Origin: Squalus acanthias
Lineage: Eukaryota
Direction: 5' to 3'
Assembly (NCBI GenBank): GCA_030390025.1
Contig: CM059432.1
Span: 97,900,001 to 97,964,000 of the forward strand
DNA length: 64,000 nt
In this document: in pieces, positions 7,960 to 64,000 of the stretch
How positions within the stretch are numbered: position 1 is the first letter of the stretch
How the letters are laid out: every line of letters starts with the position of its first letter
The notes under the pieces: model-generated
What the model saw: only the letters and a program-made list of their open reading frames with translations
Database searches by the model: none
Told to the model about the DNA's origin: nothing
Made by a program: the position numbers and the translations under genes

Positions 7960-9141
7960 CTATCCACTTAGTCCCATTCCCTTGTCCTTTCTCAGTGCAC
8001 TGCTTTTTTTCATTTTCAATTACTTATCCACTTCCTTTTTAGAAGCTATTGTGGATTCTGCTTCAAATACTGTTTCTGGTAGGGAATTCCATATCCGAAG
8101 AACCCGCTGTGTAAAGCAAATTTCTCCAAACCTCTCCCATCATTTTTTGGTCATGATCTTAAATTTATGTGTTCTATCTAGTGACTCACCAACTGGTGGA
8201 AATAATTTTTCCTGATTTACTTCATTAAAACCCTAAGGGGGAAAAATTGAATCACACCCCCTTTGGGGCGCTAACTTCGCTACTTTTAGCGCCCCGAAAA
8301 AATTAGCAGCCCCGCGGCCGAAATTGAGTGGTAGCGCCCCAAGAGGGAAGCGGGGCGCTACTGGAAGCGCCCCGCCTCCCTCTTGGGGCGCTTCTTAAAG
8401 GGGAGGGGCCTTGCGCAGCCTGACCCGGAGCCCAGCTGGGCCACCGGGATCAGAGTGCCGGCAAAAGAGCCCTGGCACTCAAGAGAAGTGCCGGGCTCAT
8501 GGAGCGCAGCCGGCACTCTGCGGGTGGGGGGGGGGGGGGGCGCTGCTCAGGAGGCCAGGGACGGCAGCAGAGGCAGGTACTGGCAGGCGGCCAGCAACAA
8601 AAATGGCCACCCGGCACCTCGCCTTTAAATAGTGCCGCCCCGGCCGCAGGTAGGCACCCGTGACCCCATAGCGTCCAGCGGTGAGTCAGGGGGCACTACT
8701 GAAGATCACAGCCGGGGCGCGAGCGGGGCGCTGCGCATGGCTATGACGTCATCGCCAGTGGCGCAGCGCCGCAGGGCGATAATGGTTACCGCCGCCACTA
8801 ACCTCCTGCTAAATTTCACGGTAGGCGTTGGTGGCGCCGCACCCGGGCGCTAGTTGCTTTGCGCCCCGTTAGCACCCTCTTAGGGCGCTAACGGGAGGCA
8901 CAAAGCAACCAAATTTTTCCCCCTAATTGTCCTAATGAAAAGAGGCCCAATTTGTCTAGTCTATTTTCATAACTGAAGCCTCTCAGCCCTGGTAGCATCT
9001 TAGCATCTCTCCTCATAGGACAACCATAGCATCTCTTCTGTACTCTCTTCATGACCTTGACATCCATCGCAAAGTAAGGCAACCAAAACTGGGCATAATA
9101 TTCTAACTGCACCCTAACCAACGATTTGTACAGTTTCAGCT
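7960..9141 (-). mobile_element. Old CR1 fragment (continues about 21069-21225 and 22037-22250), host of the MITE and the provirus
   Basis: LVRVQLEYYAQFWLPY...LRGFSYENRLDKLGLFSL; CR1-like sequence resumes after the right LTR; boundaries approximate. Confidence 0.7.
8237..8923. mobile_element. Harbinger MITE (partial relative at about 44645-45079)
   Basis: TIR GGGGGAAAAATT / AATTTTTCCCCC, TAA TSD on both sides, inserted in a CR1; right end resembles the autonomous Harbinger end at 31013. Confidence 0.85.
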
Positions 9142-10865
9142 TGTAAGGGATTCCTGACCCTGCGTGTCTCGCAGCCTGTGAGATTCACGCGGCTCTGTGC
9201 AGCCTGTATGTCAGTGCGGGTCTAGGCCTGGTTGCCTGTTCTGGTCTCCAGCCAGTCTGGGAACACTAGACACACCTGTGAGTGGTTCGAATCACTCTCC
9301 CTTACGGTTCTAGACACTGGACTTAGATGCGAGAGCAGTAATGGAGATAAAACTCATGTAGACTTGGTTTGAATGGTACGAAATGGAAAATCTTTATTGC
9401 ATGATACTTAAAATTATGAAATACATGTCATAAGCACAGATTAATGACAGTACAATCTTACAAACAGTTATATAGTCGATCTTAGGGAAACGAGGAACGA
9501 ACGGCACAAAGTAAATAGGGGCACACATTACAAATATCCTTAATCCTTAAACCCTCCCCTATCAATATCTATCCTAAACTAGCTTCGTAGGATCTCGAGA
9601 CTCATGCTCACCCCTCGTGATAACTCGGAGAAATTCCGAATAGCTGATCGGATGTTTTTCACCGCAGCACCCACGTGTCGGTCAGGAGATCTCCTGGTCC
9701 CACTTGTTTACTTGCTTCTGCTGCTCCGGCTAGCAGGCTGGACCGTCTGCTGTGATGAAGACCTGTGTTGGTTGGCTTAACAGGTACTCTTGGAGCACAG
9801 TTGTCAATATCATCGATACGATGTGTTTTCACGTTCCAGTCTCCTTAGACACAGTCCCGTTATCGTCGATGCAATATGTTTTTGTTAAAAGTTCAAAATA
9901 GAAATCTTCCTGGCGAGGAAAACTTGGCTAATCGACCTACAGGCGCGGTCGGGATTTACTGACCGTGGCGATGGATATGGTCTTCCTCTCTTCTCATCTC
10001 ATCTCATCTCATCTCATCTCATCTCGGGCCTTCGGTTCCGCTGCCAGTTACCAACATAGGTCTTCGTTACGCGACACGAGGTAGATCCGAACGGATCAGA
10101 AAGTTCAACAGTCTTTTCAGAAGAGGCAACAGGCAAGCAGAAGCCCAACTACGAGTACACAGGAGCAGCCACGAGGTTACGAATCGACCGGATAAAAACA
10201 CAGGAGCAAGCGAGCGAATGCAAGAGCAAGAGAGAGAATGGACGGTTTGGAGCCTGCAATTATAGTGCAAAAATCTTCCGTTTCCCGCCCAACTATAATG
10301 TCCATTCTTTTGTTTAGGGTTTGGCGCCCAAATGTCTTGTATGGGTGATCTCCGTTCTTAATGGGTTTCGGGGCTACTCGTAAATGTCTGAGTACCTGTT
10401 AATATTTCTCCCATTGTTAAATCGGTCGGTGTTCTCCCTGGAGGGGTTTGGGGCTTCCAAGTGTCCTGTATAACTACCTGCTAACGGCTCTCTCATCGTA
10501 GAGTCGTTGGGATTTTACATATTAATGTCCTTTGGATGGGCCCTTGATTACTCGGTACAATGGCTTTCCTTTGTACCTGGGAGACCGATTCCAGTATCTA
10601 TGTTTATACTGCAAACCCATAATGTCTCGTGTATTATCTTCACTGTGCTGCATCTTAATCGATCTTGCACAAATGTTTATTGGAACGCCATCTTGTCTGC
10701 CTGTTGAAAAGTCTAGAATGTTCTGTCACGAGGTGCGGCGGCCATTTTACAGGCTGCTTGTGTCCAATTTAAACCTGCCAGCATTCTGCTGAAATAAAAG
10801 CTGTTTGAACGAAACTTTGTGTTTTCTCCTTATTAATCAAATCGCGATATATTGCGAATTCTACA
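9142..10865 (-). repeat. 3' LTR (1724 bp)
   Basis: Direct repeat of 19341-21064; minus-strand AATAAA at 9393-9398; (CATCT)n microsatellite at about 9993-10025. Confidence 0.97.
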
Positions 10866-10877
10866 GTCCCTCCTGTT
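10866..10877 (-). promoter_or_regulatory. Short polypurine tract
   Basis: Minus strand AACAGGAGGGAC immediately before the TG of the 3' LTR. Confidence 0.6.
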
Positions 10878-11304
10878 GATGCGAATAACTCCGCTTATCG
10901 TATCAAAAATCATAGTGGTGAGCAATATTATCTCGATTTCTCTCCGAATCCAGTAAATTAATCCCATAATTTTTAACTTAGCTAGGGTCTCCGTGTCGTC
11001 CTCATTTCCCAAGAAAATCACATTTTATATCACCGTAGGCATTATTTGCCCTTAACTTACACCACTTGTTTTCCTTCCCGGCGTAACCAGGCCGATACCT
11101 CTCGTATCACCTGTATATTTGTCTTTTATTCAGGGAAAGGAAAAAACAAAACCCAAAACCAAACAATCAACACCATCACCAAAATAATCAAAACCCCAAC
11201 TCTTAAAACATGTCGAGTTCCCAACGTATTTACAATCTCTGAAAATCTTATGAGTACAAACTTCCGCGGCGCACGCGGCGAGCGGGAGTGACGCCATTTT
11301 CCGA

Positions 11305-12714
11305 TTACACGGTGCTCTCATCGTGCACGCGCACGTAACGTTCTCGCCACTCTCCCGTGTTTTCATGTTTGGTGAGGCGTTTGTCTCTTTTACAATGTAT
11401 GACCAATAGGTACACTACAATAAACACTTGACATACGACTAAAATGTGGGAGGCTATTCTGATCCATGAAGGTACTTCAATATTAGTGAACAGATTCCAC
11501 CACGGTGGAACTACTATGTCCAGAATGTCTGTTCCTATTTCGACAGTTTTCTGCTCTAATGTATAAAAATGTTTCTGTGATACCGCGACGGCTTTCAGAA
11601 GTTTGGTTAAGTGTTCAGGGAGAGGGGGAATGAGGTATCCAAAATGCGCGACAAATCGCTGCAAGTCGGTGAAATTCTCTTTTACTGTGAGATGAAAAGC
11701 AGTGAACGCATCGTTCACCAAACCCCTTCTTTGCCTCCCTACTTGATCCAAAACTTCCTGTGGTGCGGTGTACAAACTTGTTTTATCAATTTCTGCAAAA
11801 TCAAACTCGTAAAATTGTCTGAACATCTTGGTCAACAGGACCTGATACAACTGTTCCGTCTTTTTGGGGCACCACTCTGGTAACCGCACCTCAGTGAGAT
11901 TTAAAATCACCGAGGCCACCGCGTAATGTACTCCCTGAAATAGTATCTGGTCTGTGGGGACCAGTACCAAACCATTCCCGGGTCCCTTACTAGTTTTAGG
12001 GCACCCTTCTTCCTCAGCCAGAACCACCGGAATCGTGGGCGGGGCTTTGCGTGGGCGCGTAATGAGTTCAGTGGCATTTACTGGGATCGGGGAGAATGGG
12101 GCTCCGCACCCCCTGGTGCTCGCATCCCACCTCATCCCCTGTCCGTTATCCTGCCATTGATTAATAAAAAATATGGAGATGCCTTTGGGGCAAACGTACT
12201 TTGACCCCCACATACATACATAAATTCCCTCATCCGGTTCCCACCATTTGTCCCAACAGACTTTCACTTGTCCGTCTGTCCCCGTAATTGTCCGATGGGT
12301 ATTATTACCCAGTCGTTCCCACTCGACCGAAGAGTTTCTCATAGTTTTGCTCAGCTTTCGCAGCCACCACCATCGGCTCAATGGGACCTTCCCACTACAA
12401 GTCAAACAAATCCGTTTGCCGACGGTGACGCTGATCCTGGGTGCGATGATCCTTACTTTGGGGCACAGTAAAGAAGTCTCTTGGTAGGCAAACCCCGAGG
12501 TGCTAGAATACTCCGTTGAGTTCGTTCCCAGCCATCCTGGCCACCTTCCCTTGTGGAAATAGGTGCTGGTCCCCTCTGCCTTCCGTCTTCCGGTCCCATC
12601 CACCGCGATGGGGGCCGTGTCCCCGGAACATCCAAACACCACGACATCCTTGGTGCGGCCTCGATAGGCCAATCCACATCCGATTGCCACGAGCAATACT
12701 AGAATTCGTTCCAT
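11305..12714 (-). CDS. env: Env-like glycoprotein, 469 aa: signal peptide, Ig-like domain, furin site RQRR, C-terminal transmembrane helix
   Basis: MERILVLLVAIGCGLA signal; LTC...WWWLR...DEGIYVC; RQRR/GLVN; IASHILVVCQVFIVVYLLVIH; candidate splice acceptor (ctgatcacag) 13 nt upstream of the ATG. Confidence 0.85.
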   Translation of the reverse strand: MERILVLLVAIGCGLAYRGRTKDVVVFGCSGDTAPIAVDGTGRRKAEGTSTYFHKGRWPGWLGTNSTEYSSTSGFAYQETSLLCPKVRIIAPRISVTVGKRICLTCSGKVPLSRWWWLRKLSKTMRNSSVEWERLGNNTHRTITGTDGQVKVCWDKWWEPDEGIYVCMWGSKYVCPKGISIFFINQWQDNGQGMRWDASTRGCGAPFSPIPVNATELITRPRKAPPTIPVVLAEEEGCPKTSKGPGNGLVLVPTDQILFQGVHYAVASVILNLTEVRLPEWCPKKTEQLYQVLLTKMFRQFYEFDFAEIDKTSLYTAPQEVLDQVGRQRRGLVNDAFTAFHLTVKENFTDLQRFVAHFGYLIPPLPEHLTKLLKAVAVSQKHFYTLEQKTVEIGTDILDIVVPPWWNLFTNIEVPSWIRIASHILVVCQVFIVVYLLVIHCKRDKRLTKHENTGEWRERYVRVHDESTV

Positions 12715-13001
12715 CCTTCCTTGGTTCCTGTGATCAGATAGAATGAGGTAGCCAGCCTCGCAAGAGTCTCTGGCTTTTGTGAAGGGTGAGCGGGTCCCCT
12801 GACCTCGCCTCACGTAAACTTCAACGTTTGCTGAATAAACTTCAACTAAACCTAACTTTAAAACTCCCATCATTTTATCGTTTTCTGTTAAAAACACTAC
12901 AAACTTAGCCTTATTAAAAAAACTATAAACTTAACCTTGAACTATAAACTTAAAACTTAACTTCTTACTATACAGTGCCGCCCGTTCTCAGGGCGGCCCC
13001 T

Positions 13002-13598
13002 TTAAATTCTGAGAAGGCTGCTGCGAGCTCTTCCCGACGGTGGGAGGGCACTGACCCTTCCCTCTGATCTGCCGCAGCCTGTTGCTGCGCTGACCCTTCC
13101 CTCTGATCTGCCGCAGCCTGTTACTGCTGCGATGTGGCCGGTCTGTACCCGGGTTATCTTAACCTGAAGTCTACGCCTTGGGGCAGTCTGGGGACATGAC
13201 CACATCCTCCTGGGCTGGGGTTCTCTACCTGACCTACGGGGAGTTGCTATGGGCGGGGGTTCCGTGACGGACGGACCGGGTTCCGAGACCTCCAACGGGA
13301 TGACCTGGGGTTCCATCACAGTCGCCGGCTCCGCCTCCGCTGACTCCGCCTCCCTAACCTCGGGGCTGGCAGTTCGTGGCTCCGCCCTGCTCGGCCCAGC
13401 AGGCGGCCCTTCACTCGTGATCTCTGCCTCCCCTGAGGACTGGACGTTCAAAGCGGGCGGCCACATCTCTGGGAGCCACACCGGTACTCTTTGTGCTCCT
13501 ATGGCGGCTGGCCCTGCCTCCTCTAGCTCCTCCCTCCTGTCCTCGGGACCTGCAGCTTGTGTGTCCACCCTGTGTGGATCTCTACCTATAGGCCCCAT
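13002..13598 (-). CDS. Pro/Glu-rich 198-aa ORF between pol and env (frameshifted Pol tail or accessory ORF)
   Basis: Open frame, low complexity, PRRSGREPQP motif, 39-nt tandem duplication. Confidence 0.4.
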   Translation of the reverse strand: MGPIGRDPHRVDTQAAGPEDRREELEEAGPAAIGAQRVPVWLPEMWPPALNVQSSGEAEITSEGPPAGPSRAEPRTASPEVREAESAEAEPATVMEPQVIPLEVSEPGPSVTEPPPIATPRRSGREPQPRRMWSCPQTAPRRRLQVKITRVQTGHIAAVTGCGRSEGRVSAATGCGRSEGRVSALPPSGRARSSLLRI

Positions 13599-13615
13599 TC
13601 CCTCCAGACCGTTCC

Positions 13616-16600
13616 TCAGGAACCACCCGTCATCATCACTATGCTCATAGCACTATCCTCATCTGACCAGGGTACCCTGGGTTCTTCCTCATCTAACCCC
13701 CAACTCCAGAAAAACGCTGCATGATCGTCCGGGATGTCCCTTCCCCTGATGCAAGCTGCTATGCCTGCCTGTGTGCCTTGTGGTCCTACCTGGGGCTGTG
13801 CTTTCCCATTGGCGGGATTTACCCCTGTAGTTTTCCCCTGCGCACCTGGCTGGTACAGTTTGCATTGGTTTATGTGGAACCACTTAGTGCGCCGAGGTAC
13901 TTTTACGGCGTAAACCATGGGACTCGCCTTGTCTACAATGTTGTAGGGTCCCATATACAGTGGTTCCAGACTCCCTACTCTGGCGTAGTTTCTGACCATG
14001 ACCTGGTCTCCTACTTCCCACTCCCGCGTTTTGCGGGGTTCCAGCAACAAGCGATTGCCCTGATGCTGCCTTCCCATGTTCCCAGCCGCCTGCTCATAAA
14101 CTTGCTTCAGGCGCTCCAAGAGAGTCTGGGCGAACTTGTCCCTGCTTATCTCTTGGAGCTGACCCTCAGTGAGCACCGGTGCTAGCACATGGGTGGGGGT
14201 TCGCATGAGCCTCCCAGTCATTACCTCGTGCGGGGAGTACCCCGTACTTTTTGACTGACTGGCCCGGACCCCCATGAGGACTAAAGGCAGAACTTCCGCC
14301 CATTTTTGGGGCGAGTTCCTAGTCTCTTTCCTCAATTTCTCCTTCAGGGTCCGGTTCATACGTTCAACAATCCCGGATGACTGGGGATTGTGTGCTACGT
14401 GCCACTTCCCTTCAATGCCCAAAAGCATGAGGGTGTTCTGCATCACCTGGCCGGTGAAATGACTCCCTTGGTCTGACTCCACAAAACGGGGGAGTCCCCA
14501 CCGCGAGAACACTTCCCGGACCAAGATTTTTGCTGTACCCAGTGCCGTAGCTGTTCGACAAGGGAAGGCTTCCACCCACTTGGAAAACACATCCACCAGG
14601 ACGAGGCAGTACTTATAACCTCCCTGGGTGGCGGGCAGGGGTCCTATATAGTCGATCTGTATCGACTGCCATGGTCCCTCTACCCTTCTTACGTGTCCCA
14701 TGGGCACCTTCCTTTTCTGGGGGTCTGGGTTGTTTGCAGCGCACACAAGACAGTTTGCACAGAACTCGCGGACTTGTTCCCTGAGCCCTGGCCACCATCC
14801 CGCTTGCTCTACCCGTTGCCAGGTAACCTCGGGCCCGGGGTGCCCTGCCCCTGGTCCCTCGTGAGCCAACTGGAGGAATTCCCTCCTGTGCTGCTGCGGC
14901 ACAACCCACTGCTCCTCGCGGAACAGCATGCCTTCCTTAACTGAGAGGGTTGCCGTACTGTACGGACCTTCTACCCGCCTCCCCTCAGCAATCGTTTTTA
15001 GGACTGCTTTTAGGGCGGGATCCTGGGTTTGGACGGTCTTGAGGTCTAGGGGCAATGCTACCCTGGTGTTCCCGGGATTCCCATCCCCGCCTCGGACCGC
15101 TGCTATGGGTCCGGCCCTATAGGGGTTCCAGAAAGTGCCGTCGCGGGCACCCTCCCTGGCTAGCGCATCCGCCTGCCGGTTGCCCTCCCCACGGGGCTCT
15201 GTGGAGGAGTGAGCTTTCACCTTATGGATGAAAATCTCTCCTTCCTCCCCTACTGCTGCTGCTAAGATCTTTTCCAGCAAGGGCTTCACCGTTAAAGGTC
15301 GCCCGTCCGCGGAGGTGTATCCGCGGCGGGACCAAATGGCCAGGTATTCCGTACACGAATTGCAGGTGAACATACTGTCCGAGCAAATCGTGTATGGGGT
15401 TGGGAAAATGTCTGGGTGGGTCACAACGTACACCACGGCAGACAGCTCAGCCTGCTGCGCGCTCATGGTGCTAGGGAGCTTGATCGCCAGGGCAAGGTCT
15501 GCCGCAGGGTCATAAACTCCACACCCTGTGAGTCGCTCGCCAGCAGACACTGTGCTAGACCCATCAACATAAATCTCGCGCCCAGTGGGATGTATCCCGG
15601 CCCGTAAACCTATGTTGACGTCCCACACCCCTTCCACCGAACACCGGTGGGCTGTACCGGGGTATACCAAATTGGCCGCAAGCCTGGGCTCGCAAAGACC
15701 TTTTACTCTAAGATCCAGCTGGGAGAGAAGAAGGGTCCAACGCGCAATGCGTGCGCTGCTTACGGTCCCGACTTTAATCCTCCCATCCAGAAGCATCTTA
15801 GTTGGTGTGTGATGTGTGAGGAGAGTGATGGGAGAGAGCCCTGTGAAGATCGCTGATCTTTTCACAGCCCAATGCGTGGCTAAAAGGTGCCTTTCGCAAT
15901 TGGAGAAACTTCTCTCCACATCCGTTAATACCCTGGATGAATAGACAACCGGCCTCAGCTTGCCGTGACGCTCTTGGAGCAGCACGGCGCTTAAGCTGTC
16001 TCCGCTGGCAGCTACCTCCAGGAAAAACTCCTTCCCCCGATCTATGGCCCCTAAGGCTGGCGCGGTCTGCAGATCCCTTTTTAACTTCTCGAAGGCTGCT
16101 TGGCAGCCCTCGTCCCAAAGCCACTCCACCCCCTTATGGAGGAGTCGGAGGAGCGGCGCCGCTGTGGCCGCATAATCTTCGATAAAATCCCTGCAGTAAC
16201 CGGTCAGTCCCAAGAAGGACCTCACACCCCTTACGTTGTTGGGAATCGGTAATTCTTGCACCGACTCCCTCCTTGCTTTGTCTATGGCTCTTTCCCCAGC
16301 GCGTATGGTCAGTCCCAGGAATTTTACTTCCCGCTGACCGATACGTGCTTTCTTAGGGTTTATTTTAAAACCCTTTCTCGCTAACAGTTCCAATAACTCG
16401 TCCAGTAGTGGTCCGTGCTCCTCCCTTGAGTCCGTAAATAGGAGCAAATCATCCACATACTGTACTATCTGATTGGGCTGACTAAACTCCTTTAAACTTC
16501 CTGCCATACACTGATGAAAAATACTGGGGCTATTGTGGAAACCCTGTGGCAGACAGTTCCACGTGTACTGTTGCCCTTTGAAAGTAAAGGCGAACTTGTA

Positions 16601-17524
16601 CTGGTCCTCTCGCCGCAGCGGGATGGACCAAAAACCGTTCGAGATATCCAGCACCGTGAACGTGGTCGCGGACGCTGGGATGCTCCCTATTAGGTCAGCA
16701 ACTGCTGCTACTGTGGGCGCGCAGGCGGGAATGTTACCGTTAAGGACTCTGTAGTCCACCGTGGCTCTCCACGAATTATCCGGCTTCCTAACCGGCCATA
16801 ATGGGGAGTTCACGTGTGTGGCTATCGGCCTCAACACGCCCTGCTGCACCAAGGAAGACATTGCTGTCTCCATATCGGGTTCTGCTTCTTTGGGGAAGTT
16901 ATACTGCTTTTGGGGTCGGGTCATGGGGTCCCCATCTACGCTGACCTCAAACCCGACCACTCTCCCACAATCGTGCTTGTGGGTTGCAAACGCGTGCATA
17001 TTATCTGACACGTACGTTTGCATGTCCGTTGGGACATCTGCGACCATAAGCCTGAGGTTGTAGCCTCCGGATGGCTGTACGGTACACAGGACCCCTGTTT
17101 CTTCCTCCCCCGGAATCACTATTACCTCGCCCTTTTCACCTTTAGCCCCCCAGAGACAGTGATTTCTGAGGTCCACGAGGATCCCGTGTCCCGCTAGGAG
17201 ATCGGACCCGAGAATACCTCTTCCACCCCCCTTTTGCCATGCCATCAGTATACACTTCCACTTAAGGCGAAGTGTTCCTAAACGAATGGATAGCGGAAGG
17301 GAAAACGTGCCAGCCTGTTCTTTTCCTGTGAACCCTGCCAACGTGAATGGGACCTTGGTAGATAGCGGCGAGTCAAAAGGGTTATCTGTATGGATTATGG
17401 TGCAAGAAGCTCCCGTGTCCAACAAATAACTGCCCTTCTGTTTCTCTACCTCCATCTCCACCACAGGTCGCCTCCACGCATCATAGCTAAGCGGACACAG
17501 GTAGACGGGCTGTGCTGGTTCTAG
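13616..17524 (-). CDS. pol: Pol: protease, RT, tether RNase H, RNase H, integrase
   Basis: LLDTGAS; LDISNGF, LPQGFHNSP, YVDD; degenerate RNase H; IYVDGSS...AQQAEL...SDS...KVKAH...GNRQAD; HHCC, IDYIGP, SDQGSHF, SSGIVERMN, GPY. Confidence 0.97.
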   Translation of the reverse strand, partial: LEPAQPVYLCPLSYDAWRRPVVEMEVEKQKGSYLLDTGASCTIIHTDNPFDSPLSTKVPFTLAGFTGKEQAGTFSLPLSIRLGTLRLKWKCILMAWQKGGGRGILGSDLLAGHGILVDLRNHCLWGAKGEKGEVIVIPGEEETGVLCTVQPSGGYNLRLMVADVPTDMQTYVSDNMHAFATHKHDCGRVVGFEVSVDGDPMTRPQKQYNFPKEAEPDMETAMSSLVQQGVLRPIATHVNSPLWPVRKPDNSWRATVDYRVLNGNIPACAPTVAAVADLIGSIPASATTFTVLDISNGFWSIPLRREDQYKFAFTFKGQQYTWNCLPQGFHNSPSIFHQCMAGSLKEFSQPNQIVQYVDDLLLFTDSREEHGPLLDELLELLARKGFKINPKKARIGQREVKFLGLTIRAGERAIDKARRESVQELPIPNNVRGVRSFLGLTGYCRDFIEDYAATAAPLLRLLHKGVEWLWDEGCQAAFEKLKRDLQTAPALGAIDRGKEFFLEVAASGDSLSAVLLQERHGKLRPVVYSSRVLTDVERSFSNCERHLLATHWAVKRSAIFTGLSPITLLTHHTPTKMLLDGRIKVGTVSSARIARWTLLLSQLDLRVKGLCEPRLAANLVYPGTAHRCSVEGVWDVNIGLRAGIHPTGREIYVDGSSTVSAGERLTGCGVYDPAADLALAIKLPSTMSAQQAELSAVVYVVTHPDIFPTPYTICSDSMFTCNSCTEYLAIWSRRGYTSADGRPLTVKPLLEKILAAAVGEEGEIFIHKVKAHSSTEPRGEGNRQADALAREGARDGTFWNPYRAGPIAAVRGGDGNPGNTRVALPLDLKTVQTQDPALKAVLKTIAEGRRVEGPYSTATLSVKEGMLFREEQWVVPQQHRREFLQLAHEGPGAGHPGPEVTWQRVEQAGWWPGLREQVREFCANCLVCAANNPDPQKRKVPMGHVRRVEGPWQSIQIDYIGPLPATQGGYKYCLVLVDVFSKWVEAFPCRTATALGTAKILVREVFSRWGLPRFVESDQGSHFTGQVMQNTLMLLGIEGKWHVAHNPQSSGIVERMNRTLKEKLRKETRNSPQKWAEVLPLVLMGVRASQSKSTGYSPHEVMTGRLMRTPTHVLAPVLTEGQLQEISRDKFAQTLLERLKQVYEQAAGNMGRQHQGNRLLLEPRKTREWEVGDQVMVRNYARVGSLEPLYMGPYNIVDKASPMVYAVKVPRRTKWFHINQCKLYQPGAQGKTTGVNPANGKAQPQVGPQGTQAGIAACIRGRDIPDDHAAFFWSWGLDEEEPRVPWSDEDSAMSIVMMTGGS

Positions 17525-19336
17525 TCATGGGGCACTATTAGACGGTCCTGCGGCACCTACGGGGCCGGTTGCGACCGCCACCTGTCCACGCGCATTCAAG
17601 ACCAGCTTGCGCATGGCTCCTAACACTGCTTCGAGGTCGTCGGGAGGGGTGGGTGCCTTGGCTTCCTTAGCCGGGACCGGCGCCTGGGCTCGCACCGCGG
17701 GATTTTTATCCTTGGAATCCTTCCAAGGGTTCCTGCAATGCTTGCGCCAGTGCCCTGTCTTCCCACACCCGTAACAAGCATTACTTGCCTGTGGGGCGCG
17801 ATTACCCTCCTGATGCCACTCTCTTTGATACGGGGCTGCGGGTCGTACCTCATGTACTCTTCCCTTAAGGGGACGTGTCGCCATACCCCTTATATTGCGA
17901 TAACCTAACGTGAGTCGATTCAAGACCGACTCTTCCGTAATGTTGAGGTCATTGGGATCAAACCATGCTTTTGCCTGCTCTCTAACGGCTGGTAAACTGT
18001 TGGCTATTATGCACCTAAGCCAATGAGTTAGAGCGGCGCCTTCCACATCTTCGCGCTCGGGCGCACCTAGACAGCTGCGCTCATATACTGGCCACAGCCT
18101 GTCGGCAAAAACCTTCGGGGGTTCTCCCTCCATCTGCACTGTCTGTCCCACTCTAGCAAACGGACCTCCGTCGTTCGCCCCCAACACTTCTAGGACCTCA
18201 TTCTTTAATTCCTCATAACTCTTGTTTCCCCTCTTGCTCTCGCCTGAGAGACACTGAAGGACCGAGCTGTCTAATGAGAACAGCAGCATTTTTGCTGTCT
18301 CCCCATCATCGCAGCCGTTAATGGCTGCGGCTTGCTCAACTTCTCTGAAATGTACGGAAGGGTCGTCTATCTCGGTCAGCTTCCGTACGTGATTTATCAT
18401 AGCTCTCAGCTGATGTGAACTGTGAGGCAACACCAGCTGTCCGAGGAGATCCCCCGGTTCTTCCCCACCGTTTCTGCTTGGGCCCCTTTTAATACCCGTT
18501 ACTGGATACAGCGATCCCTTTTCTACTTCCTTTTCAATGGGCTCTTTTGTTTCTTCCATTGCTTCCTCCCTAACCCAGGTTTCTGAATAGCTGGGTGGCG
18601 CGGAGGGCGCAGTGGCTACTACTTCTTCTGCTTTACTTGGTGGGGATTTTCTAAATCTCTCATTTACTAGCGGCTGGTGCGCCGACGGATTGATAAGGCA
18701 CACCATGCCGTTCGCATTGTTCACGGCCTTTTTGAGGTTCTCTATCTCCCTTTGACAGGCGCTATGATCGGCTCCCTGAAACTTATCCTCAAGGGCCAAC
18801 TTATATGCCGACCTAACCCCCATTAAGCTCTCTTCTTGAGTTCTTATCTGGGCAGCTTGGCGGTTACATCTTTCCTTTAACCTGCTCTCATTCAATTTTG
18901 CCTCAGTGACCTGGCACTCGAGATAATCTATCCTTGTTTTAAGGTGACTGGAGACTTCCTGGCTTTCTTGGTGTAACTCATTTAAATTCTTAATGAGCAC
19001 CTCCCCTCCAGAAACCTTCTCCTCCATTTCTCCCTCTAAATGACTGATTCGAGCTACTAGCGCTGTAATGGTCTGGTTTGAAATCTGAACCTGCCTTTTG
19101 TAGCACATAAGCCAGACTGCTTTCTCAAGTGTCTTTCTATGTTCTTTACTATCTGTCCACCTTTCAGCTGCCTCTAGTGGGCTCTTATCCGCTAACAATT
19201 CACTTATCCACTTCTTAGTTAGATTAACCTTTCCAAACACATAATCCGCTATCTTTTCCTGCATAACATTTCGTACAGTCATTCCAAAATCTAACACACT
19301 ACCCTCTCGCTGCCAGTGTCCTGCCGCGGTCGCCAT
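17525..19336 (-). CDS. gag: Gag, 603 aa, with coiled-coil-like N-half and one CCHC zinc knuckle
   Basis: CYGCGKTGHWRKHC; PSAPPSY late-domain-like motif; ATG in AAAATGG context (a later Met start cannot be excluded). Confidence 0.92.
   Translation of the reverse strand: MATAAGHWQREGSVLDFGMTVRNVMQEKIADYVFGKVNLTKKWISELLADKSPLEAAERWTDSKEHRKTLEKAVWLMCYKRQVQISNQTITALVARISHLEGEMEEKVSGGEVLIKNLNELHQESQEVSSHLKTRIDYLECQVTEAKLNESRLKERCNRQAAQIRTQEESLMGVRSAYKLALEDKFQGADHSACQREIENLKKAVNNANGMVCLINPSAHQPLVNERFRKSPPSKAEEVVATAPSAPPSYSETWVREEAMEETKEPIEKEVEKGSLYPVTGIKRGPSRNGGEEPGDLLGQLVLPHSSHQLRAMINHVRKLTEIDDPSVHFREVEQAAAINGCDDGETAKMLLFSLDSSVLQCLSGESKRGNKSYEELKNEVLEVLGANDGGPFARVGQTVQMEGEPPKVFADRLWPVYERSCLGAPEREDVEGAALTHWLRCIIANSLPAVREQAKAWFDPNDLNITEESVLNRLTLGYRNIRGMATRPLKGRVHEVRPAAPYQREWHQEGNRAPQASNACYGCGKTGHWRKHCRNPWKDSKDKNPAVRAQAPVPAKEAKAPTPPDDLEAVLGAMRKLVLNARGQVAVATGPVGAAGPSNSAP
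19318..19335 (-). promoter_or_regulatory. Primer-binding site, tRNA-Arg(TCG)
   Basis: Plus strand GTCCTGCCGCGGTCGCCA matches the recalled 3' 18 nt of vertebrate tRNA-Arg(TCG)+CCA; 5 nt from the LTR. Confidence 0.85.
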
Positions 19337-19340
19337 TTTC

Positions 19341-21064
19341 TGTAAGGGATTCCTGACCCTGCGTGTCTCGCAGCCTGTGAGATTCACGCGGCTCTGTGCA
19401 GCCTGTATGTCAGTGCGGGTCTAGGCCTGGTTGCCTGTTCTGGTCTCCAGCCAGTCTGGGAACACTAGACACACCTGTGAGTGGTTCGAATCACTCTCCC
19501 TTACGGTTCTAGACACTGGACTTAGATGCGAGAGCAGTAATGGAGGTAAAACTCATGTAGACTTGGTTTGAATGGTACGAAATGGAAAATCTTTATTGCA
19601 TGATACTTAAAATTATGAAATACATGTCATAAGCACAGATTAATGACAGTACAATCTTACAAACAGTTATATAGTCGATCTTAGGGAAACGAGGAACGAA
19701 CGGCACAAAGTAAATAGGGGCACACATTACAAATATCCTTAATCCTTAAACCCTCCCCTATCAATATCTATCCTAAACTAGCTTCGTAGGATCTCGAGAC
19801 TCATGCTCACCCCTCGTGATAACTCGGAGAAATTCCGAATAGCTGATCGGATGTTTTTCACCGCAGCACCCACGTGTCGGTCAGGAGATCTCCTGGTCCC
19901 ACTTGTTTACTTGCTTCTGCTGCTCCGGCTAGCAGGCTGGACCGTCTGCTGTGATGAAGACCTGTGTTGGTTGGCTTAACAGGTACTCTTGGAGCACAGT
20001 TGTCAATATCATCGATACGATGTGTTTTCACGTTCCAGTCTCCTTAGACACAGTCCCGTTATCGTCGATGCAATATGTTTTTGTTAAAAGTTCAAAATAG
20101 AAATCTTCCTGGCGAGGAAAACTTGGCTAATCGACCTACAGGCGCGGTCGGGATTTACTGACCGTGGCGATGGATATGGTCTTCCTCTCTTCTCATCTCA
20201 TCTCATCTCATCTCATCTCATCTCGGGCCTTCGGTTCCGCTGCCAGTTACCAACATAGGTCTTCGTTACGCGACACGAGGTAGATCCGAACGGATCAGAA
20301 AGTTCAACAGTCTTTTCAGAAGAGGCAACAGGCAAGCAGAAGCCCAACTACGAGTACACAGGAGCAGCCACGAGGTTACGAATCGACCGGATAAAAACAC
20401 AGGAGCAAGCGAGCGAATGCAAGAGCAAGAGAGAGAATGGACGGTTTGGAGCCTGCAATTATAGTGCAAAAATCTTCCGTTTCCCGCCCAACTATAATGT
20501 CCATTCTTTTGTTTAGGGTTTGGCGCCCAAATGTCTTGTATGGGTGATCTCCGTTCTTAATGGGTTTCGGGGCTACTCGTAAATGTCTGAGTACCTGTTA
20601 ATATTTCTCCCATTGTTAAATCGGTCGGTGTTCTCCCTGGAGGGGTTTGGGGCTTCCAAGTGTCCTGTATAACTACCTGCTAACGGCTCTCTCATCGTAG
20701 AGTCGTTGGGATTTTACATATTAATGTCCTTTGGATGGGCCCTTGATTACTCGGTACAATGGCTTTCCTTTGTACCTGGGAGACCGATTCCAGTATCTAT
20801 GTTTATACTGCAAACCCATAATGTCTCGTGTATTATCTTCACTGTGCTGCATCTTAATCGATCTTGCACAAATGTTTATTGGAACGCCATCTTGTCTGCC
20901 TGTTGAAAAGTCTAGAATGTTCTGTCACGAGGTGCGGCGGCCATTTTACAGGCTGCTTGTGTCCAATTTAAACCTGCCAGCATTCTGCTGAAATAAAAGC
21001 TGTTTGAACGAAACTTTGTGTTTTCTCCTTATTAATCAAATCGCGATATATTGCGAATTCTACA
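19341..21064 (-). repeat. 5' LTR (1724 bp)
   Basis: Direct repeat of 9142-10865; candidate GC box (GGGCGGG) followed by TATAAT at about 20490-20458 on the minus strand. Confidence 0.97.
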
Positions 21065-21494
21065 AGCTTTACCTCTTTGTGCCCTCATGTACGATATCTT
21101 GGATCCCAAAGACTATTTTGCAGCTCTATCACTTTGTCCTGCCACTTTTAAAGATTTATGCATCTCATTTCTTAAGACTCTTAATTCCTCGATTTCTTTT
21201 TCAAACGAAATACTATTTAGTTTATGGCCCTGAAATGATTTGGCCATTCAAGTGCCAGAACTCCAGTGGTTCCGGCAGGAGTCCAACAAAACAGTTGCAA
21301 ACTCCACCTGGACCTGGAAATGCCAGGTCCTGGCATAACTTTGGAGTTTCCAGTGGCTTTGTTTGGGAGTGAAAAGTCTACCCATCCCAAACAAGGCCAC
21401 TGACATAGACGGGGTGGGACCAAGGGCAGGGATTCATTGCACTGGATATTCCTACTCACTTCCTCAGAGGAACCCAACGTGAGTTTGGAAGTTC

Positions 21495-26973: not shown

Positions 26974-29045
26974 ATGGAGAGGGTGAGAGAACGCGCTCAT
27001 CGCTTCACCGAGCGGGCCTTGGATGCTCTGGTTGACGCAGTGGAGCGCAGACGATGCATGCTGTTCCCAGAGAGTGGCAGGAGGCCTTTGCCACGCGAGT
27101 TCAGAAGAGTGTGGAGGGAGGTGGCTCAGAGCGTCTCCTCCAGGAGCATGGTGCCCAGGACCCATGTCCAGTGCCGCAAAAAGTTCAACGACCTCACTCG
27201 GGTCGTCAGGGTGAGTGGCTTTTTCTCAATACCTCTCCATCCCTCCATCTCAACCTCACTCTATGGCCAGAGGGTCTTAAAACCCCAATGCACAACACTC
27301 ATCCAACACCTATGGCCCTTTCATCAAACACACACACACATTCCACACTTTGCATACAGTAAGGGCTATTCACCTATGGGAGGCACATCAGGCAAGACCA
27401 TGGCTGCATACAGTAAGGGCTATTCACCTATGGGAGGCACATCAGGCAAGACCATGGCTGCATACAGTAAGGGCTATTCACCTATGGGAGGCACATCAGG
27501 CAAGACCATGGCTGCATATTGTAAGGGCTATTCACCTATGGGAGGCACATCAGGCAAGACCATGGCTGCATATTGTAAGGGCTATTCACCTATGGGAGGC
27601 ACATCAGGCAAGACCATGGCTGTATATTGACTCAGATGCTGTCCTTTTTCTTGCAGGCTAAGCTGGCTCATAATCGGAGACAGCAGCAACGGACGGGTGG
27701 AGGGCGGCTTCAGCTGCAACCCCTCAGCGATCTGGAGGAGCGCGTCCACAGGATTGTGGCAAGCCGGGTGATCGGTCCCGTCGCCACTGGAGACGCCGAC
27801 CCCGTTGTGGACAGCAATGGTAAGGTCATCACCTTTTTGTCCTCTGTCCTTCCACTTGTCCCTCACAATACCAGCCTTTGACACTTTCAATCCAACTTGC
27901 TAACTCGCTGCACTTATTCCTCCCTTACTGCCACCCTGTCCTCACGCTAAAGCCACTCTTGTACCTCCCTGCTTTCAGATGGTGATTCACCAGCTGAGGA
28001 GATGGTCCCTGAAGCTGCCACTGGGAGTGATGCTGCAGCTGAGGAGGAAGAGGAAGCCGGAGCATCAGTGCCACCCTCTCCCGAGGAAGCCCATGGCCAC
28101 ACTGGGAACACGCCTTCCCCGGAGGGGAGCAGGGGGGAAGGGGCTGATGATGGTGAAGTTCCAGGACCCAGCGGGCTGCAGCAACGCCATGGGGGGGGAG
28201 GGAAGAACGGGGGAGCAGGGGGGAAGGGGCTGATGATGGTGAAGTTCCAGGACCCAGCGGGCTGCAGCAACGCCATGCGGGGGGGGAGGGAAGAACGGGA
28301 GCCTTCTCCCCAGAGGGAGAGTATGCCAGACACTCCTAATGCAATGGACGCAGAGGAGGAGCGGCTGATTGCAGAAATGAACAGCCAGGCGGTGGTCATG
28401 CACACTGAGCTCATGGGTGCAGTGGGAAGGGTGCCAGAATGCATTGAGGCACTGGCAAGGAGTGTGGAGCACTTCGCTGTAGCACAGGCGGATGCCACAC
28501 TAAAGCTTACTGCTGCAATTCAGTCACTGGCTGCCAGGAACCCATCTGAGCCTGCTCTCATGCAGACTCAGATTGAGGCCACGCGAGCACTGACTGCTGC
28601 CATCCTCGATGGTTCGTGCACATGTCCCCGGGGCTGTCACCGCGCCGCAGCAGGCCAGCAATCTGTTCTCAGGCAAATTGCTCCGGATGCTGAAGTGCTG
28701 CCCCGTGGGAGTGCCAGTGTGTCGGGCGAGCAGGGAGTTGCTGTCCTCTCTCACGATGACAGCATTCCTGCTGCCAACACTGTCACTTCTCCACTGCACT
28801 TGCCACCGCCTGTAGGACAGACTGCTGCCGCCCATGCAGAGTTGGTGCAGTCTGCAGCCGGGCCCTCCAGGCCCAGAAGTGGTCGAGGCCGTCCTTCAGG
28901 GGCATCTGCAGTGTCAGGGTCTGACAAGCAGCAGCCTTCCACCAGCCTTGCTGCAGCCACTGAGGTCCCATTACGGAGGAGCAGTAGGGTTAGAAGGGGG
29001 GAAGTGCGCAAGGGAAGGAGATCACCCTCGAAGGGCAAAAAGTAG
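26974..29045 (+). CDS. Harbinger Myb/SANT-like protein, 3 exons (26974-27210, 27657-27819, 27979-29045), predicted 488 aa
   Basis: RFTERALDALV...WREVA...RTHVQCRKKFNDL; GT-AG introns whose phases join into one open frame. Confidence 0.85.
27351..27620. repeat. 54-bp minisatellite x5 in intron 1 of the Myb gene
   Basis: Unit tgcatacagtaagggctattcacctatgggaggcacatcaggcaagaccatggc. Confidence 0.95.
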
Positions 29046-55186: not shown

Positions 55187-56227
55187 AAATTGTGAGGTCG
55201 CACAACACCAGGTTATAGTCCAACAGTTTTATTTGAAATCACAAGCTTGTGGTGAGCAGCAGCAGCAGAGTGGTGGTCTCTGTGACCAGGAAGAGGAGAA
55301 GGAGAAGGAGAAGGAGACCAGACAGCAGACCACCACCAACAACCAACACATCCACAACTGAGGTGCCTGGAGAGAGAGGACAGGAGAGGAGAAAGAAAAG
55401 AAGAGAAGGCCAAGGCCATTAACAACAGAGGAGAGGCCTTTCCAACACTGCCTCCTCAATTGGCCTCCATTTTAGGAGAGGGAGAGAGGGGAGAAAACAA
55501 CACAACATCCATCATCTGTTTGGAAGGAGGGAGGAAAGAAAGAACAACATCTACAGGTGGGTGTGATTCTGGTGCACTCTCCCAGAGACTTTGTTTTGTA
55601 GGTGGGGGGAGGAAAGAAGAAAAGAAGAGGGCCGGAACATCCAAGGGGTGTGTGTGTGTGTGGCTTCTGTAAAAGCTAGGCCGCACACACCATATTAAAC
55701 ACCCCTTTCCCATTGCCTGACCTGGGACAGCTGGAGCTGCCTAGGTGAAGTCCCCAATTAATTTAATCTTATTGGGCATCGTTAAGACCTGGTGCAGGAC
55801 TGAGCCTGGGCATCTCCAGCTATCCCAGGTGAAGACATCTTCTCCCCCCACCAGAAGACCACCACCAAAGACTTTTATTACATCGGAGAGTGCACCCCCC
55901 TGCCAACACCCACCCACCCACCATCCTGAGTGGCGACCCTGCCCTTGCGGCTTCCCTCCTTCCCACCCCCCCTCTCTCTCTCTCTTTGTCTCTTGTCTCT
56001 CTCTGCCTCTCTCTCTAAGAGGCACCTCAATCTACTTTTTATTAAGTACCCATTGAGCAGAGGGGAGAAGGCCCCTCTCCCAATTAATTCATAAAAAGGG
56101 AGAGGTGTGCCTTCAATTTAAGAGCTCCCTCTGCTCAGGGGAAAACAAAAACAAAAAAAAACCGAGGCCATTAACACCTTCAGGCCTGTGACTTGGGGTG
56201 AGTGTAGCCCTTAAAGAACCCTCCATT

Positions 56228-58384
56228 ATGGCGAGTACATCTTCGTCGGTGGCGGGGGCAGCGAGGACGTATGCGAGCGTGGCAGCCGCGGCCACGGCCG
56301 CAGCCACGAGTCCTCCTGTTACCCCGTCACCTTTTACCCTCCTTACGAGGAAGAATGGGGTCAAGAGCTACACTCACCCCAACATGACAATAGAGGCGTG
56401 CGTAAAAGCCATGGCTGGGGTTGTCGGCCCTTCAGCCATCGTCGCCGCCTCTAAAATGTACGGCAAGGCTGTGTTCTTCCTGGGGTCGGAGCGGGCGGTG
56501 TCCCTGGCCATCAAGAAGGGGCTCACCGTGGGCGGGACCTTCCTGCTGGTGGACCCCCTTGAGGCCACCGCGCAAAGGATTGTGGTTTCCAACGTCCCGC
56601 CCTTTGTTCCGGGTGAGCTCCTCCTCCCCCACCTACGTCAACTGGGGGAGGTGAGGTCGGGGATCACACCCATCCCGCTCGGCTTCCGGGAAGCCAGCCT
56701 TCGGCACGTCTTCTCCTTCCGGCGCCAGCTTTTCGTCCGGCTGGCGCGGGAGGAGGACGCGGATGGCGCGTTCACGGTGCTCCACGGGGGGACCGCCCAC
56801 CGCGTCTTCTGGACCTCGGACGGCGTGCGGTGCTACGCCTGTAAGGAGGTGGGGCACGTCCGCAAAAACTGCCCCGCCTCCAAGGCCGCCACGACACCTG
56901 GCGCGGCCAGGGTTGGCGCCGCCGCCCCCCCTCCCCCTGATACTGTCCGCGCGTCGACGGCGACGGATGCGCGGTCGAAATCGGAGGCCAACACCACCAC
57001 GGCCTCCGGCGGGGGGGAGGGAGAGCGTCCGGGGGGAAGGAAGGCGCGTAGGAAAAATAAACACCTAGGGGCGGATCCCCTCGCGGAGGAAACATCGGAG
57101 TTGACCGAACTCACGCCCGAGTACATCGCGGAGTTGGTCGGGACGCATGAGACTGGGGGGGTCCTCGTGCCCGGGCCCGTGACCGTGACCGCAACTGCTG
57201 AGGCAGCTAAATCAAGACCTGCGGCAGGGCTCGGGCCCGAGGGGCCCAAGAAACCCAGTCGTCGGAAGGGGGCAGAGAGGGAGGCCCCAGCAGACATGGA
57301 GGCCTCCCCCTCTCCGGGCCCCAACTTGTTAAAAAGAAAGCTCCGCCCCCAGCAGGAGGACTGCGAGGAGGAAGGTCCCTCCGCAAAAGGGGGGCAGTCG
57401 CCCGCCGCGGGTGCTGCGCCCCACCCCACCACCGTCATCGTCGTGCGCGATCGGCAGGGGTCGTCTGTCCCTCGGGAGGGTGGGACAGCAGAGTCTGTCC
57501 GACCTGTGCCTCCCGGGGATGGGGAAGAGACCCTGCCCGTGGGGGGGGGCGCGGAACAACCCGCGGAGGGAAATGTAGTTCCGGAACCGTTGCTCCTCGC
57601 CGGGTCGGGCGTCCTGGGGACTGGGGCGGGCGAGGCCAAAGAGGCTGAAGCCGAGCCCGCCTTTTATAACCCAGACATCTCCCTGGGACTGCTCGACCTG
57701 GTGGAGGAGTGTAGCAATCCCCAGCCCGCTGGGTCGGAGGTTGGTGGCGGGGAGACGGAAAGCCCCCTGACTCCGTCTCTGTTGTTGGCGCCGGACGTGC
57801 TGGAGGAATTTGGGATTATTTTCTCCCCGGTTTCTCCGGTCGCCCCGGCGCCTGAGGCGGGGGGGGGCCCCGAACCGCCGCCGCCGCCTCCCGGCCCGGC
57901 GCCCCTGAAGGAGCCCAGGGTGGACTCCTCTGCCACCGATCCTGGGGGTGGGATCGTGACGGAGGCGGGGCCGGCCGGTGCGGCCGAGCCGTTCGCTGCA
58001 CCCTGTGCGACGGACGGGTCGGCCGCCGGTGACGACCTCCCGGAGGAGGACGGGGACTCGGTGTTGGGCACTGAGGAAGATTTGGAGTCCATCAGCAGCG
58101 AGGCGATGGACGCCCTCGTGCCCTTCACTGACTCTCCCCTCATCCCCGTAGGGGAACTCCGGGATTTTATGGCCGTGAGCCAGGGTCGTCACAAGAAGAT
58201 CCGGCTGGCCCTCGACAAGTGGTCGGAGCTGGCGCTGCTCATCGTGTCCGTCCGCGCCGCCGTTAAAATCATGGGCGCGGACAAGGACGTTGGCCGGCTC
58301 GAGCTGCGTCGGCTCAAGAGTTTCCACACTGGGCTGCTGAGGGAGTGGCGGTCGTCAGTGACCGCGCTCCCTCCCCTCCGTTAG
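56228..58384 (+). CDS. Tx1 ORF1 nucleic-acid-binding protein
   Basis: IVAASKMYGKAVFFL, IVVSNVPPF, SFRRQ, CYACKEVGHVRKNC knuckle. Confidence 0.9.
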   Translation: MASTSSSVAGAARTYASVAAAATAAATSPPVTPSPFTLLTRKNGVKSYTHPNMTIEACVKAMAGVVGPSAIVAASKMYGKAVFFLGSERAVSLAIKKGLTVGGTFLLVDPLEATAQRIVVSNVPPFVPGELLLPHLRQLGEVRSGITPIPLGFREASLRHVFSFRRQLFVRLAREEDADGAFTVLHGGTAHRVFWTSDGVRCYACKEVGHVRKNCPASKAATTPGAARVGAAAPPPPDTVRASTATDARSKSEANTTTASGGGEGERPGGRKARRKNKHLGADPLAEETSELTELTPEYIAELVGTHETGGVLVPGPVTVTATAEAAKSRPAAGLGPEGPKKPSRRKGAEREAPADMEASPSPGPNLLKRKLRPQQEDCEEEGPSAKGGQSPAAGAAPHPTTVIVVRDRQGSSVPREGGTAESVRPVPPGDGEETLPVGGGAEQPAEGNVVPEPLLLAGSGVLGTGAGEAKEAEAEPAFYNPDISLGLLDLVEECSNPQPAGSEVGGGETESPLTPSLLLAPDVLEEFGIIFSPVSPVAPAPEAGGGPEPPPPPPGPAPLKEPRVDSSATDPGGGIVTEAGPAGAAEPFAAPCATDGSAAGDDLPEEDGDSVLGTEEDLESISSEAMDALVPFTDSPLIPVGELRDFMAVSQGRHKKIRLALDKWSELALLIVSVRAAVKIMGADKDVGRLELRRLKSFHTGLLREWRSSVTALPPLR

Positions 58385-58409
58385 GTAGAGGTTGCACTAT
58401 GCTTCTGAG

Positions 58410-61400: not shown

Positions 61401-62308
61401 AGGAGTTGGTGAGGCGCATGTCCTGGGTCAACGTCCGGCTCGCGGTCAAAGCCATCGAGTCGCTAAAAGTGGCACTGGGCCCCGTCTCCACTAGGTGTGT
61501 CGAGGAGGCTCAAGCACGTGGGGCGATCCCGTCCGTACTGACCCCCGTTCGGACGGAATTCATTATCGGCGCCCGGCCCCGAATCCTCGCTCGGGAGCCG
61601 CCGCCTCACCACTTGAGCCTTCTCGGAGAAATGCCCTCCGTGCCCTTTCAATCCGCACGGAGGCGTTTCCTGTACGGGCTGCTCCTGCATACTCTCCACT
61701 TTGCCATCTTCGTCTGCCGTCCGGACACGCCTTGGCGTACCATCCTGCCGTCCGGCGGAGGCGAAGGTCCCCATTGGAAGGCTCTCTACGCGGGAGTCTT
61801 CCCTTGTTCTATTGGGGACTTGGCCTGGAGGGTGTTGCACGGAGCAGTCCCGTGCAATAGGATTTTAAGTAGGTTTACGGACTCCCAGGCTGCTTGTCAT
61901 TTCTGCGGCCTAGAGGAGTCCGTCTATCACATTTATATTGAGTGTGAGAGGTTGCAGCCCCTCTTTCATTATTTGAAGGGGCTGCTCCTCAATTTCTGGT
62001 TGCACTTCAGCCCCACGCTCCTGATCTACGGTCACCCGGTGCGGAGGGGAGCGGGTAGGTCGGAGGACCTCCTCGTAGGACTGCTCCTGGGCCTGGCCAA
62101 GAAAGCCATTAATTGGTCCAGGCAGCGGGCGGTCGAGGGGGTCGTTCGGCCCGATTGCCTGCCTCTCTTCCGCGGCCATGTTCGCGCCCGGGTGGCCCTG
62201 GAGATGGAGCACGCGGTGTCCGCCGGCACGCTTGAGTTTTTCCGCGACCGGTGGGCGCCGCGGGGACTGGAGTGCATCGTCATCCCGGACTTCCAAATTT
62301 TGATTTGA
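58410..62308 (+). CDS. Tx1 ORF2 (APE endonuclease, RT, zinc finger) with a single frameshift near 60041
   Basis: SLNING, LQETH, GGDFN, RIDR, TDH; NWRPVSLL, LDQEKAFDRV, GVRQGCPMS, YADD; CHFC...H...C. Confidence 0.92.
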
Positions 62309-63368: not shown

Positions 63369-64000
63369 TGTAGAATTCGCAATATATCGCGATTTTATTA
63401 ATAAGGAGAAAACACAAAGTTTCGTTCAAACAGCTTTTATTTCAGCAGAATGCTGCCAGGTTGTTCAAAGTGGACACAAGCAGCCTGTAAAATGGCCGCC
63501 GCACCTCGTGACAGAACATTCTAGACTTTTCAACAGGCAGACAAGATGGCGTTCCAATAAACATTTGGGCAAGATCGATTAAGATTCAGCACAGTGAAGA
63601 TAATACACGAGACATTGTGGGTTTGCGGTATACAAATAAATACTGAAATCGGTCTCCCAGGTACGAATGAAAGCTATTGTACCGAGTAATCAAGGGCCCA
63701 TCCAAAAGACATTAATATGTAAAATCCCAACGACTCTACGATGAGAGAGCCGTTAGCAGGTAGTTATACAAAACACTTGGAAGCCCCAAAACCCCTCCAG
63801 GGAGAACACCGACCGATTTAACAATGGGAGAAATATTAACAGGTACTCAGACATTTACGAGTAGCCCCGAAACCCATTAAGAACGGAGATCACCCATACA
63901 AGACATTTGAGCGCCAGACCCTAACAAAAGAAAGGACATTAAGGTTGGGCGGGAAACGGAAGATTTTGTACTATAATTACAAGCTCCAAACCGTCCATCT
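63369..64000 (+). repeat. Diverged LTR of the same provirus family, opposite orientation, runs off the window end
   Basis: Begins TGTAGAATTCGCAATATATCGCG, the reverse complement of the LTR end at 21064; scattered substitutions and a small indel. Confidence 0.95.

Follow-up and report, generated by a model that had tools for sequence, protein, structure and literature searches.

Predicted UGA-CUAG readthrough between gag and pol in a deep-branching endogenous retrovirus of Squalus acanthias

The window analysed here is a 64,000-nt stretch of Squalus acanthias DNA (assembly GCA_030390025.1, contig CM059432.1, positions 97,900,001 to 97,964,000), and it contains an endogenous retrovirus whose gag and pol genes are divided by one UGA stop codon with CUAG directly behind it. 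The provirus occupies 9142-21064 on the minus strand, between two long terminal repeats (LTRs). Its gag open reading frame (ORF) starts with the ATG at 19336 and lies in the same frame as pol. From 17530 the minus strand reads CCA TGA CTA GAA CCA, and this TGA is the sole stop of the gag/pol frame within 17900-17201, where the other two frames hold 13 and 9 stops. A sequence-only reading of this DNA had described these codons, the frame that stays open into the protease and a fusion of 1906 aa, and all of this is borne out: a Gag-Pol read through the UGA is predicted to have 603+1+1302 = 1,906 aa. The UGA lies 35 codons upstream of the protease aspartate, which is residue 36 after the stop. 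Frameshifting is ruled out as the route into pol: gag and pol share one frame, and just one heptamer within 150 nt looks slippery, at 17381, downstream of the protease site. The gag-pol region contains the following features.

17525-19336, minus strand: gag, 603 aa plus TGA, called as an ORF; its CCHC knuckle spans about aa 521-534 (17735-17776).
17521-17527, minus strand: candidate UGA-CUAG leaky stop (TGA 17527-17525, CTAG 17524-17521), seen in the sequence and bridged with 0 differences by a contig of another organism, coded B.
17493-17529, minus strand: stretch from the stop to about +33 apparently still matched by diverged relatives, drawn from clip boundaries, as are its internal letters.
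17452-17518, minus strand: predicted hairpin, +7 to +67 after the stop, a candidate stimulator, from folding.
13616-17524, minus strand: pol, 1,302 codons, with protease (DTG 17419-17411), reverse transcriptase (RT), tether, second RNase H, integrase and SH3-like tail, from Pfam matches to RVP, RVT_1, RT_RNaseH, RNase_H, Integrase_H2C2, rve and SH3_Tf2-1.

CTA accounts for 19 of the 1,905 gag and pol codons (1.0%), and 36% of codons start with G; thus, CUAG would be expected after the stop by chance in only about 0.4% of cases. TGACTAG occurs three times in the whole window, both strands counted. UGA-CUA alone gives 1.5% readthrough in human cells, and the CUAG context gives up to about 31% in OPRL1 (PMC4132726); for UGACUAG, readthrough is at least about 1.3%, and downstream structure is only conditionally required (PMC13517186).

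We propose that Gag-Pol is made by programmed UGA-CUAG readthrough at a few percent, which the sequence makes very likely. In this model, gag and pol would be translated from one unspliced RNA; most ribosomes would terminate at the gag UGA, yielding the 603-aa Gag, and a few percent would insert an amino acid at the UGA and go on to make Gag-Pol, because the CUAG context weakens termination. The residues inserted at UGA readthrough are Arg, Trp or Cys. The stretch from +1 to +33, or the hairpin, may raise the readthrough rate. UGA-CUAG would set the Gag:Gag-Pol ratio here, as UAG plus a pseudoknot does in gammaretroviruses, with the type II signal of alphaviruses and vertebrates.

The same signal stands in lokiretroviruses. 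Among the 24 consensus sequences in the supplement of PMC7947760 (Wang and Han), seven have a traceable gag-terminal stop, and all seven stops are TGA CTA. The next base is G in Ofa, Pyo, Sau and Cne (four CTAG; Cne was identified through the Pol translation that matches it) and A in Bsp, Dcl and Lro (three CTAA). Translated by eye, all seven are in frame with the pol start, the Bsp consensus being frameshifted later. Since the sequences are related, these stops do not represent seven independent events. Five other sequences contribute no junction: the consensus starts only at pol in Aro, Lch and Ape, and Lca and Rca were untraced. Tfu is ambiguous and was excluded from the count; its gag ORF ends at a TAA inside apparent pol sequence. 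The accessible main text of PMC7947760 makes no mention of readthrough, stop codon, termination or frameshift. In Loki-Lro, an ATG stands three codons past the TGA-CTA, and in Loki-Tfu, with a Pol like that of Dcl and of Lro, the frame seems to stay open across the junction until a TAA further on; at the sequence level, both suggest that the junction state changes within one lokiretrovirus group. Besides the TGA-CTA-R junction of seven consensus sequences, lokiretroviruses share with the element the dual RNase H, which is common to all retroviruses, and NYNRIN-like Pol matches, and Loki-Sri shares the 5-nt spacer between LTR and primer-binding site (PBS). In contrast to the element, they have no cartilaginous-fish hosts among those listed in the accessible parts of PMC7947760.

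The junction was also followed in sequencing runs and in protein relatives. At least half of the sampled words occur in 20 of the 24 runs listed (9 studies, six coded organisms), and four runs were aligned over 16800-18200 as assembled contigs, with 40 of 194 variant places and 24 of 96 loose ends seen. A contig of organism B spans 17463-17563 with 0 differences. Among the variant places listed, none falls within 17340-17599. Among the loose ends listed, three of the four runs have ends at 17528/17529, just 5' of the TGA, and three of the four have ends at 17493/17495, about 33 nt past the stop; the summed depth of the 17505-17551 bin exceeds both neighbouring bins in three of the four. By eye, the loose letters give a Gag C-terminus with other codons and a protease N-terminus that has diverged. 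It appears that only the segment between the stop and about +33 is still matched by diverged relatives. As judged from these sequences, the TGA is no copy damage. The only joint in the four runs, in X3 (DNA), is a 342-nt in-frame skip at 17374-17715 without GT..AG ends. It takes out the end of gag together with the stop and the active site of the protease, and is read as a deleted genomic copy. Spliced pol reads were looked for as well, as the sequence-only reading had proposed: no splice joint was seen in run X9, guessed to be RNA, whose assembled contigs cannot exclude one.

On the Gag side, the only relative in the first search was the skate protein P0001, 50% identical over its full length, which by itself points to a cartilaginous-fish host; in the skate cluster, three of four members end at the same residue, without protease, and the fourth is a 334-aa model. 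A Gag profile gave 87 matches, and a protease motif was present in none of the 18 inspected. The long Gag relatives P0147 and P0149 end 68 and 64 aa past the knuckle, compared with 69 here. A search of 8,000 scored candidates for a longer, fused relative found none, which counts as weak evidence. On the Pol side, the closest named relatives are from frogs and the coelacanth (37-41% identical), and seven of the eight closest are Pol-only models, which shows separation from Gag but not its nature. Single-query scans of viral and metagenome contigs gave no relative, an alignment scan of metagenomes gave none either, and in viral contigs there were distant reference retroviruses only, so that the frog, coelacanth and skate relatives are compared here as proteins.

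By its RT sequence, the element is a deep-branching endogenous retrovirus with frog and coelacanth relatives, and neither a lokiretrovirus nor a mammalian foamy virus. The rows of the RT trees were hand-picked from matches, and the gamma, delta, foamy and gypsy labels were assigned by length, junction type and domains; L001 is the snakehead retrovirus (SnRV), from its match to the SnRV row in the supplement. In a 41-row tree with reference viruses, the element and the 91%-identical P0002 fall in a basal, poorly resolved group with frog and coelacanth proteins, separate from the gamma/epsilon/delta, snakehead and foamy clades. With 19 rows and three gypsy rows as the root, the element stands on the canonical-retrovirus side of the single Loki-motif sequence, P0013, on a 99/96 branch of 15 rows. 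The approximately unbiased (AU) test rejects a pairing of the element with P0013 (p-AU 0.028, with Loki thinly sampled), and also a clade with three foamy-type loci, the mammalian foamy viruses (p-AU 0.024). Lokiretrovirus membership, the first guess, was dropped on these RT trees and the first of these p-AU values. The element may belong to one of two groups compared by description only, the foamy-like elements of shark and frog (PMC5512871) or CmiERV lineage I (PMC4422223). CmiFLERV/XtrFLERV of the former study and CmiERV lineage I of the latter are, like the element, basal cartilaginous-fish retroviruses, and they group with a frog element or with the snakehead retrovirus.

Among known systems, suppression of termination between gag and pol is textbook for gamma- and epsilonretroviruses. 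As in Moloney murine leukemia virus, walleye dermal sarcoma virus and the snakehead retrovirus (UAG-GGC), gag and pro-pol of the element lie in one frame, with a single stop between the nucleocapsid knuckle and the protease aspartate. From stop to aspartate there are 27-32 codons in L001-L008, L014, L024 and L033 (snakehead 32, gammaretroviruses 27), against 35 here. The stop itself is different: gamma- and epsilonretroviruses have the type III signal, UAG then G, as seen in our gamma loci (UAG-G), with an H-type pseudoknot behind an 8-nt spacer in gammaretroviruses, whereas the element has UGA-CUAG and an RT outside the gamma/epsilon clade. UGA at the gag/pol junction is already known in fish and frog retroviruses, and only the CUA(G) context is new. 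On record are UGAAGA in salmon swim bladder sarcoma virus, UGACGA in a zebrafish endogenous retrovirus (ERV) and UGAAGU in a frog ERV, as well as the TGA of XtERV-S; like the element, these viruses have aquatic hosts, and readthrough in them is assumed, but none of the three listed hexamers is UGACUA. The identical heptamer, with a candidate stem-loop about 7 nt past the stop, belongs to type II readthrough (Sindbis virus, chikungunya virus and Plautia stali intestine virus; human OPRL1, OPRK1, AQP4, MAPK10 and MDH1), a signal listed, in the accessible passages, for alphaviruses, a triatovirus and host genes and not for retroviruses. In the accessible part of a 2026 review of animal-virus readthrough, UGA-CUA(G) is not listed for retroviruses, and we found no report of it in a retrovirus in the literature searched, outside which lay most subscription papers and the whole of Repbase. 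The readthrough interpretation of the earlier reading is supported by the in-frame UGA-CUAG, by the same junction in organism B, by what looks like its retention in diverged relatives and by TGA-CTA in the seven lokiretroviruses; on the other side, a UGA gag stop as such is no novelty, and the stop is not universal.

Several points weigh against readthrough at this junction or reduce the evidence for it. Readthrough itself, its rate, the inserted residue and the role of structure are all inferred. Eleven of the 24 lokiretrovirus consensus sequences (Oja, Sri, Ame, Sme, Pma, Pfl, Str, Npa, Xtr, Xla and Bpe) are presented in the supplement as fused Gag-Pol or have a beginning that looks like one. 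In the coelacanth model P0007, the C-terminal part of a Gag continues into Pol with no stop between them, truly or via a predicted intron. It is because of these fused relatives that the stop cannot be called universal. The Candida albicans LTR element Tca2, which is fungal, also has a UGA between gag and pol, and its gag-UGA-pol junction failed to direct readthrough in reporters (PMC2194720). The variant gap from the stop to +155 is no more than suggestive, with P = 0.008 when 40 places are counted and 0.064 when they are grouped into 23 clusters. The conservation of TGACTAG across copies, which the earlier reading had raised as a check, holds exactly in the organism B contig; in diverged relatives, the TGA and its neighbouring letters are inferred from clip points only, and the two loose ends are not demonstrably on one contig. 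Ahead of Pol, the Gag part of P0007 contains a stretch rich in Gly and Arg and lacks the CCHC knuckle, which recalls foamy viruses although this model is otherwise a close relative in Pol.

The evidence on the downstream structure is mixed. Folding the roughly 150 nt behind the stop, another check raised by the earlier reading, does give the hairpin from +7 to +67, and the fold of 155 nt past the stop has z = -3.8, a value that is discounted because of sliding-window controls, in which the hairpin is not exceptional: the rank is 7 of 55 at 155 nt and 13 of 112 at 70 nt, z is -0.9 at 100 nt, and the 200-nt fold pairs differently. The folding tools used predict no pseudoknots. In run X17, the sole well-aligning diverged downstream sequence, the inner stem is kept and two G-U pairs become Watson-Crick pairs; several outer pairs are broken if the 5' arm is unchanged (both by eye). 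Three minus-strand segments within pol, at 16275-16374, 15825-15924 and 16870-17024, have stronger predicted folds than the junction does (z about -4.7 to -5.9).

Three other explanations of the junction were considered. It is improbable that Pol is made separately in the foamy manner, through splicing, an mRNA with an internal start or reinitiation, with CUAG being incidental. Foamy viruses in general have a Pol with its own start before the protease and a Gag without a CCHC knuckle. The element differs from mammalian foamy viruses in having the knuckle and the in-frame stop, and its first pol Met, residue 24, lies inside the protease: the Pfam protease match begins earlier, at residue 17, and Met24 is also downstream of the protease N-terminal PL...RP segment, which is common to the snakehead virus and the coelacanth. 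Thus, a separately initiated Pol would lack the protease N-terminus. Met24 is nevertheless the model start of the close relative P0002, and further points in favour of a separate Pol are the RT-RNase H scores, about as near foamy virus (222 bits) as murine leukemia virus (238 bits; 145 for Ty3), the Lro consensus with its ATG past the TGA and a weak acceptor-like AG at 17487. Yet this AG is followed by out-of-frame ATGs, most foamy-type loci have a Met between the upstream stop and the protease motif, and the AU test excludes the RT from a clade with mammalian foamy viruses, as given above. A separate Pol also leaves the rare CTA codon after the TGA in all seven lokiretroviruses unexplained.

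UGA is also the codon for selenocysteine, and it could be recoded through a selenocysteine insertion sequence (SECIS), or be bypassed by a non-canonical route needing distant sequence, as in Tca2; we regard this as very improbable. Tca2 needs more than its junction (PMC2194720), which is the point in its favour, but the local UGA-CUAG context is a known sufficient signal (PMC4132726, PMC13517186), and neither SECIS nor any other Rfam family reached gathering score in 9000-21200, where the eight weak matches (E 0.2-0.8) include no SECIS. It is extremely improbable that a nonsense mutation or a sequencing error put the TGA into a lineage with normally fused Gag-Pol. The fused forms, P0007 and the 11 lokiretrovirus sequences, would fit such a lineage; however, the copy is very young, the identical junction occurs in another organism, the skate and other Gag relatives (at most 50% identical) end at the equivalent place, and the stop sits precisely on the boundary of Gag and protease, within a context known to be leaky. 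Programmed readthrough of UGA-CUAG is therefore the explanation that we retain.

The rest of the provirus has the Retroviridae layout, with LTR-gag-pol-env-LTR, the order protease, RT, tether, RNase H and integrase, and a target-site duplication. Its further features are these.

21065-21068: 4-nt target-site duplication AGCT, with its partner at 9138-9141, from the flanks.
19341-21064, minus strand: 5' LTR, 1,724 nt, with TG...CA ends, from its identity to the 3' LTR.
19318-19335, minus strand: PBS, starting with TGG, 5 nt beyond the LTR, from the sequence.
13002-13652, minus strand: Pro/Glu-rich ORF of 216 codons between pol and env, sharing 37 nt with the end of pol and containing a short internal repeat.
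11305-12930, minus strand: env-like ORF with an immunoglobulin (Ig)-like motif, an RQRR cleavage site and a C-terminal hydrophobic helix, called from cleavage site and helix only.
10866-10877, minus strand: purine-rich tract preceding the 3' LTR, from the sequence.
9142-10865, minus strand: 3' LTR, from the LTR comparison.

The two 1,724-nt LTRs are 99.94% identical, and since they differ at only one site, the insertion must be very young. Neither the Gag protein nor the Pro/Glu-rich ORF has a Pfam match, and the latter is possibly an accessory gene or a chance ORF. In the env-like ORF, the Ig-like segment of the surface part gives weak matches (E about 0.8) to junctional adhesion molecule and antibody domains. 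Only about 90 aa lie between the RQRR site and the membrane helix, and this short ectodomain after the cleavage site suggests an in-frame deletion; as far as the sequence tells, the env-like ORF is probably internally deleted. No match of its protein to Mononegavirales F was found in Pfam, Atlas or PDB, and the predicted model is poor (predicted local distance difference test score 35).

The gag ATG overlaps the PBS (19318-19340), so that the PBS doubles as Gag codons one to six (MATAAG), with no leader separating the two. The Gag of relatives begins with MATAAG (P0149, P0154 and P0160) or MATTKG (skate), a difference that would fit a switch of primer tRNA. The PBS would match tRNA-Arg(UCG), which is presumably also a near-cognate reader of UGA; no literature match was found for the 18-mer, and the 64-kb window contains no tRNA genes. 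Elsewhere in the window, a partial LTR of the same family, 95% identical, lies in opposite orientation at 63367-64000 on the plus strand and runs off the window end; a non-LTR retrotransposon at 56192-62308 (plus strand; CCHC ORF1, endonuclease and RT) is broken into several ORFs; and a tandem array with a 54-nt period occupies 27297-27680.

Such elements are easily misread in genome annotation. Gene callers divide them into two models, one an 'uncharacterized protein' and the other a 'NYNRIN-like' protein whose protease is truncated, and the gag UGA may count as damage in screens for intact ERVs. If our reading is right, retroviruses have another way to set the Gag:Gag-Pol ratio, by the UGA-CUA(G) signal of alphaviruses and host genes. 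Two accounts of its origin can be given. UGA-CUA(R) readthrough may be the ancestral retroviral Gag-Pol switch, passed down to the lokiretroviruses as sister group as well as to the present lineage, the earliest canonical one to branch off; we hold this to be rather unlikely, and if it is true, UAG plus a pseudoknot, frameshifting, a spliced pol mRNA or simple fusion would later have taken its place. It is at least as likely that the strongest leaky context of vertebrates was reached repeatedly by convergence, considering that many lokiretroviruses (lamprey, amphibians) and the coelacanth model are fused. The lokiretroviruses, with stop-containing and fused members, offer a natural comparison for asking why the ratio needs control, and a UGA-CUA signal in two deep branches near the retroviral root bears on how Pol expression began.

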